Shown: one piece after another, positions 32,327-35,717 of the stretch
Layout of the letters: every line of letters starts with the position of its first letter
How positions within the stretch are numbered: the first letter of the stretch is position 1
Origin: a virus
Taxonomy: Duplodnaviria > Heunggongvirae > Uroviricota > Caudoviricetes
Reading direction: 5' to 3' (one strand)
IMG/VR virus record: IMGVR_UViG_2541047933_000001
Length of the DNA: 41,008 nt
The notes under the pieces: generated by a model
Told to the model about the DNA's origin: nothing
What the model saw: only the letters and a program-made list of their open reading frames with translations
The model's database searches: none
Program-made: the position numbers and the translations under genes

Positions 32327-32977
32327 ATGAAAACTCAATTGATGGGAGAGCGCATTCGCGCTCGGAGAAAAGAACTCAAGATCAGGCAGGCCGCACTTGG
32401 AAAGATGGTCGGCGTGTCTAATGTTGCCATATCTCAGTGGGAACGCTCTGAGACAGAGCCAAATGGAGAGAATCTTCTCGCCCTGGCTAATGCGTTGAAG
32501 TGTTCCCCTGACTATCTGATGAAAGGAGAGGAAAGTCTTTCAAACATTGCCTATCACAGTAGGCATGATCCAAGAGGGTCATACCCTCTGATTAGCTGGG
32601 TGAGCGCAGGATGCTGGATGGAAGCTGTAGAACCATATCATAAGCGTGCAATAGATAACTGGTACGATACAACCGTAGACTGTTCAGAAGATTCGTTTTG
32701 GTTGGACGTGAAGGGAGACTCAATGACGGCTCCGGCCGGTCTCAGTATCCCTGAAGGAATGATAATACTCGTCGATCCTGAAGTAGAGCCGCGTAACGGG
32801 AAACTGGTAGTTGCAAAGCTCGAAGGAGAAAACGAGGCAACTTTCAAGAAGTTAGTTATTGATGCAGGCAGGAAGTTTCTAAAACCACTTAACCCACAAT
32901 ATCCGATGATCGAGATCAACGGAAACTGCAAAATCATCGGCGTAGTTGTCGATGCAAAACTAGCAAACCTTCCATAA
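32327..32977 (+). CDS. c2: C2 repressor (P22-type, LexA-like autocleavage fold)
   Basis: 216-aa product MKTQLMGERIRARRKELKIRQAALGKMVGVSNVAISQWERSETEPNGENLLALA... matches recalled P22 C2 over its full length. Confidence 0.9.
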   Translation: MKTQLMGERIRARRKELKIRQAALGKMVGVSNVAISQWERSETEPNGENLLALANALKCSPDYLMKGEESLSNIAYHSRHDPRGSYPLISWVSAGCWMEAVEPYHKRAIDNWYDTTVDCSEDSFWLDVKGDSMTAPAGLSIPEGMIILVDPEVEPRNGKLVVAKLEGENEATFKKLVIDAGRKFLKPLNPQYPMIEINGNCKIIGVVVDAKLANLP

Positions 32978-33019: not shown

Positions 33020-33100
33020 AGCTAAACTTAAGTTACGAAAGAAAATTTAAGTTTTCTTCAAAAATACTCTTGACCATTAATTAAAGAGATCTTAAATTTA
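33020..33100 (+). promoter_or_regulatory. OL/PL region: operator-like sites and candidate PL (-35 TTGACC 33070-33075, -10 TTAAAT 33093-33098)
   Basis: 18-bp sites ATTAAAGAGATCTTAAAT (33080-33097) and ATTTAAGTTTTCTTCAAA (33045-33062) share the OR half-site pattern; promoter hexamers with 17-bp spacer directed at N. Confidence 0.5.
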
Positions 33101-33145
33101 AGCCATCAGCAGGACGCTGGAAGCCAAACGGAAAAGATTGGCAGG

Positions 33146-33185
33146 CTCTTTAACATTGATGGGATTGTCCCGCCGAAATGCGGGA
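33146..33185 (+). promoter_or_regulatory. nutL-like site: boxA (GCTCTTTAAC) plus boxB hairpin (TCCCGCCGAAATGCGGGA)
   Basis: Same boxA and boxB sequences as at nutR, between PL and N. Confidence 0.6.
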
Positions 33186-33498
33186 ACCAAAGAGTAGTTG
33201 GCTTTGGGGTGACGTGAAGTGCAGCTGCACGACGGCAACCGGAAGATAAGCACCCGGCGCGTCACCGCCAAAGTCAATTCCATAGGCGTTATGCAGCCGC
33301 CACCATATTCAAGAAAGCTGCACAAGAGGTAGGAGGATTTATGTGAATACTTACATTCAATTGAGAGATTAATTAAATAGAACTGATCGAGCAGAGTCCA
33401 TAAAGGCTCATAAATGCTCTTCCATCCCCGTCTAATTGGCGGGGAAGGAAACCACTTTGTAATAAAAAAATTCCAAAGTTGTTTCATCGGAGGTCAAC

Positions 33499-33798
33499 AT
33501 GACAGTAGTCATTACATATCTGGCTGACGATAACGCCAGAAATCGCCGCAGAGCACGCAGACAGGCTCAACGTGAACAGGCAATGCAAGAACAGCGACTG
33601 GCGCGAAAGATTGCGCTAAAGCTCTCTGGTTGCGTCAGAGCAGACAAAGCAGCATCACTCGGAAGCCTTCGCTGCAAGAAGGCAGAAGAAGTCGAGAGTA
33701 AACAGAATCGTATTTACTACCGCAAGCCACGCAGTGAAATGGGGGTGACTTGTGTTGGTCGCCAGAAAATGAAATTAGGAAGCAAACCACTTATTTGA
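33499..33798 (+). CDS. N: N-type transcription antiterminator
   Basis: 99-aa product with N-terminal Arg-rich motif (NARNRRRARRQAQREQ) and C-terminus RIYYRKPRSEMGVTCVGRQKMKLGSKPLI resembling the lambda N C-terminus. Confidence 0.8.
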   Translation: MTVVITYLADDNARNRRRARRQAQREQAMQEQRLARKIALKLSGCVRADKAASLGSLRCKKAEEVESKQNRIYYRKPRSEMGVTCVGRQKMKLGSKPLI

Positions 33799-33806
33799 GG
33801 TGATAT

Positions 33807-33893
33807 ATGGAAGAAGAATTTGAAGAGTTCGAAGAGCATCCGCAGGATGTGATGGAACAATACCAGGACTATCCTTATGACTACGACTATTGA
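33807..33893 (+). CDS. 28-codon highly acidic/aromatic small ORF (MEEEFEEFEEHPQDVMEQYQDYPYDYDY) overlapping the ral start
   Basis: Strong RBS GAGGTGATAT 8 nt upstream of the ATG; overlaps ral by 17 nt in another frame; may correspond to the small ORF annotated near ral in lambda (unverified). Confidence 0.35.
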   Translation: MEEEFEEFEEHPQDVMEQYQDYPYDYDY

Positions 33894-34077
33894 TAAGAAT
33901 CAATGGTGTGGACAATTCAAGCGATGCAATGGATGCAAGCTGCAATCGGAATGTATGGTTAAGCCTGAAGAAATGTTTCCTGTAATGGAAGATGGGAAAT
34001 ATGTCGATAAATGGGCAATACGAACGACGGCAATGATTGCCAGAGAACTTAGTAAACAGAATAACAAGGCTGCCTGA
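33877..34077 (+). CDS. ral: Restriction alleviation protein Ral (near-identical to lambda Ral)
   Basis: 66-aa product MTTTIDKNQWCGQFKRCNGCKLQSECMVKPEEMFPVMEDGKYVDKWAIRTTAMIARELSKQNNKAA matches recalled lambda Ral. Confidence 0.9.
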   Translation: MTTTIDKNQWCGQFKRCNGCKLQSECMVKPEEMFPVMEDGKYVDKWAIRTTAMIARELSKQNNKAA

Positions 34078-34094
34078 TGGTGGCCTTTATTTTT
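34068..34094 (+). terminator. Rho-independent terminator overlapping the ral stop codon
   Basis: GGCTGCC-TGAT-GGTGGCC hairpin (stop codon in the loop) followed by TTTATTTTT. Confidence 0.6.
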
Positions 34095-34121
34095 GTCCGT
34101 AAATAATTTCATGCTTATTAC
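34093..34121 (+). promoter_or_regulatory. Candidate autonomous promoter for the membrane-protein moron (-35 TTGTCC, -10 TATTAC, 17-bp spacer)
   Basis: Hexamers positioned about 15 nt upstream of the AAGGTG RBS of the 34136 ORF, directly after the ral terminator. Confidence 0.35.
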
Positions 34122-34135
34122 AATCAAGGTGATAT

Positions 34136-34558
34136 ATGGAAGAACAAGCAAACAAGATTCTCGTAGAACTTCTGCAAAAAGCCAGTAATGGAATAGACGC
34201 GGCTGTTTCATTTAGCCAGGCACAGATTCCTGATGTTGTTCGTCAGTTGCTAACATGGAGTTTTGTCCATAGCGCACTTTTCCAAGTGGCTGGGTTGTTG
34301 CTTTTAATTGCAGCAATGAAACTTCCTAGTTTTGCAAGAACGGCAAGAAATAATGGCGAGAGATGGACGTCTTTAGATGGATGTCCAAACGATAGATATT
34401 TTATATCTTCGTTTTATTACGATATATGCACTGTATTTGCTCCTATATTTGGCTCAATTATTGGCGTTTTAATTATTGCCTTCAATTTCGAATGGTTGAA
34501 GATTTGGCTTGCACCTAAGTTATTCCTAATTGAATATGCAGCATCATTGGTTAAGTAA
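34136..34558 (+). CDS. Small membrane protein (two predicted TM helices), moron; candidate superinfection-exclusion function
   Basis: 140-aa ORF with hydrophobic segments ALFQVAGLLLLIAAM and FAPIFGSIIGVLIIAF; AT-rich; bracketed by terminator plus promoter upstream and a strong terminator downstream. Confidence 0.6.
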   Translation: MEEQANKILVELLQKASNGIDAAVSFSQAQIPDVVRQLLTWSFVHSALFQVAGLLLLIAAMKLPSFARTARNNGERWTSLDGCPNDRYFISSFYYDICTVFAPIFGSIIGVLIIAFNFEWLKIWLAPKLFLIEYAASLVK

Positions 34559-34562
34559 TTTC

Positions 34563-34588
34563 AGGCCGCATAGTCGGCCTTTATTTTT
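34563..34588 (+). terminator. Rho-independent terminator after the membrane-protein moron
   Basis: AGGCCG-CATAGT-CGGCCT hairpin followed by a T-rich run (TTATTTTT). Confidence 0.8.
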
Positions 34589-34747
34589 GGCATAAACAAC
34601 AGAATAAACACTGCACTGTGTATTCATTCCAACGAGTGAATACACGGAGCAATGTCGCTCGTAACTAAACAGGAGCCGACTTGTTCTGATTGTTGGAAAT
34701 CTTCTTTGCCCTCCAGTGTGAGGGCAATTTTTTTTGATGGAGGATAT

Positions 34748-35098
34748 ATGAGTGAAGTAACAGATTTAGTTGTTATTGAAAAAGCAAATGCAATGACTGT
34801 ATTTCAGTCTGCCGACCAGATTGAAGAAATTCTCCAAAAGGTTGAACGTGAAGTTATGTCATTTGTGCCTGATATCACAACGGCAAAGGGCAGAAAGGAG
34901 ATCGCTTCTCTGGCGTATAAAGTTGCGCAGACGAAAACATATCTCGATGGTCTTGGCAAAGACCTTGTTGCTGAACTGAAGGAAATTCCAAAGCTAATTG
35001 ATGCCAACCGCAAGACAGTGCGCGATCGCCTTGATGAACTGAAAGCCAAGGCGCGCCAGCCTCTTACTGATTATGAGGAAGAATCAGGCGCGGATTAA
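34748..35098 (+). CDS. Hypothetical protein, possibly the 5' part of a frameshifted gene
   Basis: 116-aa ORF from ATG at 34748 with GGAGG RBS; ends 26 nt inside the start of the next ORF in a different frame. Confidence 0.45.
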   Translation: MSEVTDLVVIEKANAMTVFQSADQIEEILQKVEREVMSFVPDITTAKGRKEIASLAYKVAQTKTYLDGLGKDLVAELKEIPKLIDANRKTVRDRLDELKAKARQPLTDYEEESGAD

Positions 35099-35717
35099 AG
35101 CCGAAGAAGAAGCTAAGGCAGCAGCTGAAGCTCTCGCAAAGCAAATTGAGTCTGACCATGAAATAGCGATTTTGATGGATCGCGAATTTGACCGCCAAAG
35201 AGAAGAGGCAAGACTCAAAGCGGAGCAGGAAAAGCGAGAGCATGAAGAACGATTAAAAAGAGAAGCTGAAGAGAAAGCCAGAGCAGAAGCCGAAGCAAAG
35301 GCAAAAGCCGAAATTGAAGCAGCAGCAAGGCGAGAAGCAGAAGCTAAGGCCGCAGCGGAACGTGCAGAGCGTGAACGCATTGAAGCCGAGCAACGAGCAC
35401 AGCGCGAAGCAAAAGAGGCAGCAGAACGAGCTGAAAGAGAAAAGCAGGCAGCAATTGAAGCAGAACGCAGAAAAGCACAGGAGGAGGCTGAACGAATCCG
35501 TCGCGAGGCTGAAGCAAAAGAGCAAGCCAGAATAGCAGAAGAAAAAAGAATCAAGGACGAAGAAGAGCGTAGAGCAAAGGATAAAGCTCACCGGAAAGAA
35601 GTAAATAACAAAATACTTGCTGACCTTATCAAGGTTGGCGCATCAGAAGATGTTGCTAAAAATATCATAACAGCCATCGTAAAAGGCGAAGTATTCGCAA
35701 CAAAAATAACCTACTAA
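35073..35717 (+). CDS. Glu/Ala/Lys/Arg-rich coiled-coil protein, possibly the 3' part of a frameshifted gene
   Basis: 214-aa ORF with long KAEAEAKAKAEIEAAARREAEAKAAAERAERERIEAEQRAQREAKEAAERAEREK repeats; overlaps the previous ORF. Confidence 0.45.
   Translation: MRKNQARIKAEEEAKAAAEALAKQIESDHEIAILMDREFDRQREEARLKAEQEKREHEERLKREAEEKARAEAEAKAKAEIEAAARREAEAKAAAERAERERIEAEQRAQREAKEAAERAEREKQAAIEAERRKAQEEAERIRREAEAKEQARIAEEKRIKDEEERRAKDKAHRKEVNNKILADLIKVGASEDVAKNIITAIVKGEVFATKITY

Follow-up and report, generated by a model that had tools for sequence, protein, structure and literature searches.

Several described systems resemble the locus reported here. The accessory genes of lambda-type early-left (pL) operons (ral, ea10 and the tL1/tL2 cluster) share one orientation, lie between N and cIII/kil and are flanked by intrinsic terminators. 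The morons of HK97- and HK022-type phages (e.g., HK97 gp15) are pieces of extra DNA with a lower guanine + cytosine (GC) content, their own terminator and a small membrane protein as product. Among the phage proteins used for comparison, P22 SieA and T4 Imm are small integral inner-membrane proteins encoded by accessory genes, and T4 Imm is expressed early in infection. The genes for lambda RexB and for SieB of lambda and P22 lie near N and ral, and their products are membrane-associated. SieA is active against P22-like phages only (PMC10883804). Here, a 494-bp segment carrying a 140-codon open reading frame (ORF), referred to as ORF140, was analyzed in the IMG/VR virus record IMGVR_UViG_2541047933_000001 (Caudoviricetes); the whole stretch of 41,008 nt is called the window. 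In an initial annotation, this segment had been regarded as a self-contained moron downstream of ral, with an architecture suggesting expression from the repressed prophage, in the manner of lambda sieB or rexB. The results presented below suggest instead that ORF140 is likely an early gene that depends on the pL operon for its expression, and not an autonomous unit expressed by the prophage.

Sequence comparison of positions 33800-34800 revealed 100% identity to phage CUS-3, the P22-like prophage of Escherichia coli K1 strain RS218, and 96.9% identity to Shigella phage Sf6; the window is CUS-3. On the plus strand, cI (32327-32977) is followed by N, a 28-codon ORF resembling orf28, ral, ORF140, a homolog of Sf6 gene 33, cIII, kil and erf, and the gene block from N to erf is the pL operon. 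ORF140 lies on the strand of N, ral, cIII, kil and erf, between N and the cIII/kil/erf genes. It shares orientation, place and flanking intrinsic terminators with the pL accessory genes of lambda, whereas lambda itself lacks the gene, and its product is a membrane protein, which Ral is not. ORF140 is identical (100%) to CUS-3 ECRS218_0047 and is the counterpart of Sf6 gene 34 (92% protein identity), with which it has the position after ral in common; both are annotated as "hypothetical" only. The AT-rich ORF of 140 amino acids with a strong ribosome-binding site, as initially described, could be confirmed: it extends from 34136 to 34558, has a GC content of 38% compared to 47% for the window, and begins with an ATG located 2 nt downstream of the Shine-Dalgarno sequence AGGTGAT (34127-34133).

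By alignment with lambda, Sf6 and HK633, a discrete cassette was delimited that is missing from lambda and comprises the spacer behind ral, the Shine-Dalgarno sequence, the ORF and a terminator. The exact empty site was found in a prophage of E. coli ERP001 (L169), which has ral and lacks ORF140; it reads ...AACAAGGCTGCCTGATGGTGGCCTTTATTTTTG up to the junction and GCATAAACAAC... beyond it. The insert is bounded by a 14-nt direct repeat, GGCCTTTATTTTTG, with copies at 34082-34095 and 34576-34589. A terminator overlapping the ral stop had been proposed and was verified, with a hairpin at 34066-34087 (-14.8 kcal/mol) running into the T tract TATTTTTG. Since the 14-nt repeat corresponds to the 3' arm and T tract of this terminator, which is unbroken at the empty site, the upstream terminator is part of ral and not of the insert. 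The downstream terminator had been described as strong. A hairpin with a T tract is indeed present at 34563-34580, but it is of moderate strength (-9.7 kcal/mol, z = -1.5). In every lambdoid context examined, a terminator follows directly 3' of the family gene, and the hairpin sequences differ in the loci L025, L026 and L034. Of the features of a moron, the discrete insert, the lower GC content and the own terminator hold, while the upstream terminator belongs to ral and the promoter was not recovered, as described below.

A second direct repeat, of 21 nt (AGGTGATATATGGAAGAA(G/C)AA), is located with copy 1 at the N stop (33798-33818) and with copy 2 at the start of ORF140 (34127-34147). Both copies span the Shine-Dalgarno sequence and the start codon of a gene. 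Recombination across these repeats could turn the ral-containing arrangement into one in which ORF140 directly follows N, as found in the five relatives L013, L015, L016, L019 and L023.

A candidate sigma-70 promoter had been placed upstream of ORF140. In a consensus scan, no promoter-like site passed between 34040 and 34140. The top match in a position-weight-matrix scan, TGGCCT-17-TAATTT, reached 6.3 bits, with its -35 hexamer located within the terminator stem. This is the level of the background, as it corresponds to the 83rd percentile of random 100-nt windows from CUS-3; by comparison, the likely pL and pR promoters scored 13.9 bits and 11.5 bits, respectively. Stronger -10-like hexamers (TATTAC and TACAAT) would place the transcription start inside or after the Shine-Dalgarno sequence. 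To judge from these scans, the spacer at 34096-34135 holds no convincing promoter, i.e., none above background.

The origin of the spacer was assessed with 83 related loci gathered from viral contigs, in which the 130 nt upstream of the family gene were compared. Without gaps, the spacer with the Shine-Dalgarno sequence shares 29 of 40 positions with the 3'-terminal part of another N allele, which is carried by L037 and L059 (...CCAGCTTATTACGATTGAGGTGAGAT). If the Shine-Dalgarno sequence is left aside, 21 of 30 positions are identical, a value equalled by 2 of 100,000 shuffles. Because the match goes beyond that of shuffled sequences, the AT-rich "promoter region" is taken to be decayed N coding sequence. 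The arrangement of the window, with the gene behind the ral terminator, is one common type among the related loci. In many relatives, the N gene directly precedes the family gene; at about 18 of about 80 loci it starts 8 nt past the N stop (...AAACCACTTATTTGAGGTGATATATG), with neither a terminator nor room for a promoter. These N-adjacent loci include the same 140-amino-acid allele in the five relatives named above (95-97% nucleotide identity) and other alleles in L048, L054, L067, L070 and L073. At L025 and L034, a terminator leads straight into the Shine-Dalgarno sequence of the family gene.

Due to the promoter score at background level, the spacer as a relic of N and the same allele abutting N in relatives, ORF140 is read as an N-antiterminated gene of the pL operon. 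N would let the RNA polymerase pass the ral terminator, so that ORF140 would be transcribed from pL and its product made early after infection or induction; in the window, the gene would be delayed-early and N-dependent. In the N-adjacent relatives, the terminator of the gene would stand in for tL1, and its expression would be immediate-early, like that of N. The autonomy and the expression from the repressed prophage that had been proposed are not supported by these comparisons, in which no convincing promoter, an N-relic spacer, an N-adjacent allele and homologs in virulent phages were found. Three points weigh against the operon-dependent reading. The strong ral terminator (-14.8 kcal/mol) lies between pL and ORF140, which makes the expression wholly dependent on antitermination. 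On sequence alone, a weak or non-canonical promoter upstream of ORF140 may still be present. Finally, the 494-bp unit shows hallmarks of a moron, namely extra DNA, a lower GC content and an own terminator.

The product of ORF140 belongs to a large family. Each of the 472 homologs from a word-indexed search bears the name "hypothetical", "gene 34 protein" or "phage transmembrane protein", the last of which is used in some UniProt entries. An exhaustive profile search recovered 3,766 clusters (50% identity) at E <= 0.001, of which 1,710 reached E <= 1e-10; almost all of the members listed are 120-180 amino acids long. The exact allele (at least 80% of the query length) was detected in 60 of 5,426 complete E. 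coli genomes. ORF140 matches PHROG 3054, a family of unknown function, over its full length (residues 1-140 versus 1-137 of 137 profile positions, E = 8e-52), and 144 of 144 diverse members match this PHROG as well. The family motifs, an N-terminal F..Q.Q.PDV..QLL.W and a C-terminal WLKIW.APKLYL.EYA with two transmembrane (TM) helices between them, are all present in ORF140.

Homologs occur in podo-, sipho- and myoviruses, the hosts of which are related Gammaproteobacteria. Among them are virulent phages, i.e., N4-like Schitoviridae (FSL SP-058 and Shigella phage B2), phi92-like Justusliebigvirus and many Vibrio phages. In these, the gene is always located in early or DNA-metabolism regions, beside RNA polymerase, ATPase, exonuclease or methyltransferase genes, and never in the lysis cassette. 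No conserved neighbor gene could be found across the loci compared; downstream of the family gene, a gp33-like gene, a second recurrent ORF, an ATPase or an exonuclease gene can follow.

Searches for a known function gave no assignment. Scans of the ORF140 protein against Pfam, NCBIfam and PADLOC yielded nothing (PADLOC: no family at E <= 1), and a Pfam scan of the 144 members gave scattered single noise matches only. None of the 144 members matched an exclusion-annotated PHROG. Sequence profile searches of the PDB found nothing below E = 1, and when the models were compared with BFVD and the PDB by Foldseek, all matches were either uncharacterized homologs or non-significant helical ones. No paper on the protein or its family was found by gene name, accession, PHROG id, peptide or topic, and the protein is not mentioned in the epsilon34 genome paper or the P22 SieA paper. 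ORF140 is already contained in GenBank as a hypothetical gene, and mosaic accessory cassettes are well known from the early operons of lambdoid phages.

The two hydrophobic helices of the initial annotation were confirmed at residues 43-61 and 97-115, and two TM segments are present in 252 of 265 members. The protein is divided into conserved ends and a variable center. In the alignment of 144 sequences, the majority-residue frequency drops to 0.33 in TM1, 0.19 in the loop and 0.21 in TM2, with insertions and deletions mainly in the loop, while I123, A126, P127, K128, L131, E133 and Y134 are nearly invariant. The same pattern is visible on the nucleotide level. Alleles of 121 and 149 amino acids from E. 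coli and Salmonella phages share 90-97% identity with the window in the first 123 nt and about 80% in the last 75 nt, compared to only 45-52% in the center. More distant alleles retain the amino acids of the termini, with changes in about half of the conserved codons; L026, for instance, agrees in 37 of 41 N-terminal residues, yet 23 of those codons are different. Kept residues with changed codons indicate purifying selection on the termini and not merely recent exchange.

Among 252 members, the 15 residues after TM1 contain 3.57 Lys/Arg on average, compared to 0.34 before TM1, and the N-terminal tail has a net charge of -3.2. According to the positive-inside rule, this distribution of charges predicts periplasmic termini and a cytoplasmic basic loop. 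The AlphaFold2 model, built from a deep alignment, has a mean predicted local distance difference test score (pLDDT) of 93.8 and a predicted template modeling score (pTM) of 0.71. It consists of a continuous helix (residues 2-72), a loop with a small beta-bridge (73-92), a second helix (93-116) and C-terminal helices (119-139). We read this model as a long helical hairpin with a variable membrane part in the middle and a conserved stalk outside of the membrane; from the order of the helices, the N-terminal helix probably packs against the C-terminal helix. Some alleles of distant phages share the loop motif G-E-x-W-T...T-S-x-x-Y/F-D (alignments A2 and A4), which corresponds to residues 74-95 (34355-34420) in the window and maps to the beta-bridge that the model predicts (residues 78 and 90). 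As the motif recurs, the "variable" loop would exist as a few recurring structured types.

With regard to the function, the conserved terminal modules would be the constrained, functional part of the protein, and the TM hairpin and loop would vary like exchangeable cassettes. If it acts early in the lytic cycle and on the periplasmic side of the inner membrane, the protein could alter the envelope of the cell under infection. Most plausibly, the cell would be closed in this way to further phage DNA entry, as with T4 Imm or P22 SieA, with the stalk serving as the scaffold and the variable membrane hairpin as the determinant of specificity. By analogy, such an early envelope or exclusion role at the periplasmic face of the inner membrane is proposed tentatively. 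On balance, the joint explanation favored here is that of a 494-bp accessory cassette which recombined into the pL operon at the ral terminator and acts by an early envelope mechanism. The wider proposal, that Sf6 gp34 and PHROG 3054 represent an unrecognized, widespread class of early inner-membrane effectors, is more speculative still. In this class, the periplasmic stalk would dock on a conserved envelope component and the hairpin and loop would set the specificity, which would provide a general mechanism of superinfection exclusion or envelope takeover for temperate and virulent phages of Gammaproteobacteria.

Direct comparisons with exclusion proteins were carried out for SieB, RexB, SieA and gp15, and T4 Imm is cited as an analogy of function. 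Profile comparison (hhalign) of the family with HK97 gp15 gave a probability of 0.8%, with P22 SieA 0.3%, and with lambda SieB and lambda RexB 0.2% each. The likeness to sieB and rexB suggested by the initial annotation is therefore generic only, with less than 1% profile probability for each. The gene positions differ as well. In lambda and P22, sieB is located between N and ral on the opposite strand, i.e., opposite to pL, and the P22 record annotates a promoter of its own. ORF140, in contrast, follows ral in the direction of pL, and the window has no sieB between N and ral. RexB has four TM segments and is encoded downstream of cI, compared to the two TM helices of ORF140 and its position after ral. 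SieA has only P22-like targets, whereas the ORF140 family occurs in phages with many virion types. HK97-type morons differ in that no promoter is detectable for ORF140 and that the gene directly follows N in relatives.

Several observations weigh against the exclusion role. Homology to known exclusion proteins was looked for by PHROG, PADLOC and profile comparisons and was not found. Proteins that block injection are usually limited to one phage type, and the spread over podo-, sipho- and myoviruses fits a conserved host target better. The predicted topology derives solely from the positive-inside rule, and a quick drift of TM helices could account for the variable center without an arms race.

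An early host-takeover or counter-defense effector is a tentative alternative of similar standing. It would bind a conserved host component of the inner membrane or periplasm and would not block other phages; candidate targets are a protease, a division or envelope-synthesis factor, a stress sensor or a membrane-bound defense effector. This would suit the pL neighbors ral, cIII, kil and the recombination genes, which all act on the host, as well as the occurrence in phages with unrelated virions and injection machineries and related gammaproteobacterial hosts. The strongly conserved modules adjacent to the membrane would also fit a single conserved host partner. However, no such partner was found, nor was a conserved neighboring gene or a similarity to characterized inhibitors, and a single conserved target leaves the hypervariable membrane hairpin unaccounted for.

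The self-contained moron with its own sigma-70 promoter, which would be expressed in the repressed prophage and exclude or abort other phages in a sieB-, rexB- or HK97 gp15-like manner, is considered unlikely. It would explain the discrete low-GC insert of 494 bp between terminators and the small inner-membrane protein as its product, as is the case for many exclusion proteins. A hypervariable center among co-circulating alleles fits an arms race. Clear homology to a known non-defense membrane protein, which would speak against such a role, was looked for and not found. On the other hand, the promoter score equals the background, the better -10 hexamers leave no 5' untranslated region and the spacer consists of decayed coding sequence from N. 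The same allele is elsewhere the second gene of the pL operon, lacking a terminator or promoter before it, and the family has members in virulent phages, which have no lysogeny. Furthermore, there is no PADLOC match, and the protein is unrelated to SieB, RexB, SieA and gp15.

A modulator of lysis timing, i.e., an antiholin-like or lysis-inhibition factor acting from the periplasmic side, is improbable. T4 rI is made early in infection, and an early expression of ORF140 would be comparable; the small protein with two TM helices and a conserved part predicted to be periplasmic, and its presence in N4-like phages, are also in line with this idea. In all genomes examined, however, the gene is located outside of or away from the lysis cassette, no holin or antiholin PHROG or Pfam match was found among the 144 members, and the charged cytoplasmic C-terminus typical of holins is missing. 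A chance ORF in an AT-rich, non-coding spacer, for which only the missing functional annotation speaks, can be ruled out by thousands of full-length homologs, an excess of synonymous over amino acid changes in the termini, the strong Shine-Dalgarno sequence and the confident structure model.

Table 1. Features of the ORF140 cassette and its surroundings. Positions refer to the window.
Feature	Positions	Strand	Basis
N-type antiterminator gene, first gene of the pL operon	33499..33798	+	PHROG 271, E = 1e-36; N in CUS-3 record
21-nt direct repeat copy 1, AGGTGATATATGGAAGAAGAA	33798..33818	+	covers N stop, Shine-Dalgarno sequence and start of the 28-amino-acid orf28-like ORF
ral, restriction-alleviation gene	33877..34077	+	Pfam PF11058 (Ral), E = 4e-48; PHROG 1055
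ral intrinsic terminator, stem-loop 34066-34087 and T tract	34066..34095	+	overlaps ral stop; -14.8 kcal/mol, z = -3.0
494-bp cassette: spacer, Shine-Dalgarno sequence, ORF, terminator	34096..34589	+	alignment with lambda, Sf6 and HK633; empty site; repeat spacing of 494 nt
Spacer and Shine-Dalgarno sequence, putative remnant of an N-allele 3' end (...GCTTATTACGATTGA) followed by AGGTGAT	34096..34135	+	29/40 match; promoter scans
ORF140, two-helix inner-membrane protein, 140 amino acids, Sf6 gp34 / PHROG 3054 family	34136..34558	+	PHROG 3054, E = 8e-52; CUS-3/Sf6 identity; AlphaFold2
Conserved acidic N-terminal helical module, residues 1-41	34136..34258	+	majority-residue frequency 0.61; purifying selection; charge
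Hypervariable center: TM1 (43-61), basic loop, TM2 (97-115)	34262..34480	+	alignments; frequencies 0.19-0.33
Conserved hydrophobic amphipathic C-terminal module, residues 117-140, WLKIWLAPKL.L.EYAASLVK	34484..34555	+	majority-residue frequency 0.76
Cassette terminator, stem-loop 34563-34580 and T tract, holds 14-nt repeat copy 2 (34576-34589)	34563..34589	+	-9.7 kcal/mol, z = -1.5
Third terminator, stem-loop 34706-34727	34706..34735	+	-13.2 kcal/mol; counterpart in Sf6 record homologous to lambda tL2a

Some further observations concern the surroundings of the cassette. In the gap between cI and N, the best sigma-70-like site is TTGACC-17-TAAATT at 33070-33098 (13.9 bits), which is probably pL; this position results in an N leader of about 400 nt. 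An ORF of 129 codons on the minus strand, which is not annotated in CUS-3, is antisense to this leader (33098-33487). The orf28-like ORF between N and ral (33807-33893) has 28 codons, encodes a very acidic peptide (MEEEFEEFEEHPQDVMEQYQDYPYDYDY) and overlaps the ral start.

The junction downstream of ral in lambda (L003, 1758-1800) is the same as that of the empty site (L169, 700-745), with two substitutions that destroy the hairpin (-6.0 kcal/mol, z = +0.65). By the criterion of hairpin folding, lambda would have no functional terminator at the ral stop. On the minus strand, a full-length but sub-threshold match to the enterobacterial small RNA STnc230 of Rfam was obtained at 34055-34135 (27 bits, gathering score 50), a stretch that is antisense to the ral terminator and the ORF140 leader. 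The identity as STnc230 was dropped as not significant, the match probably being due to a mere hairpin and A/T run.

Downstream of the cassette, the non-coding block 34590-34705 is invariant among the window, lambda, Sf6 and HK633; it is annotated as "bsq4 boundary sequence" in the Sf6 record and contains an imperfect 22-nt inverted repeat (34608-34629 and 34634-34655). For non-coding DNA of mosaic phages, this conservation is strict. The same terminator with its flank (query positions 504-541) is also present in other E. coli prophages (hits H138-H142), where it lies under a gene designated "Nmad5 family putative nucleotide modification protein" in RefSeq, which indicates a different cargo gene in the neighboring slot there. 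The homolog of Sf6 gene 33 (PHROG 1376, a family of unknown function) is broken into two ORFs, 34748-35098 (116 amino acids) and 35073-35717 (214 amino acids). The split is caused by one additional T at 35084, with GAAGAATCAGG in the window compared to GAAGAACAGG in Sf6 and HK633. It is either a frameshifted pseudogene or a sequencing error inherited from the CUS-3 record.

As an element, the segment is an ordinary mosaic accessory cassette of a lambdoid early operon. With its exact empty site, the 14-nt and 21-nt repeats and the fossil of N as the "promoter region", it provides a worked example of a cassette that is moron-like yet probably not autonomous. Its product belongs to a very large family for which there is no Pfam model, solved structure or published function, and which combines a confident model with an unusual pattern of conservation, the exchangeable membrane hairpin being enclosed by constrained termini. 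Should the family control DNA entry or another function of the envelope, this would have a bearing on phage-phage competition and on the prediction of host ranges in phage therapy.

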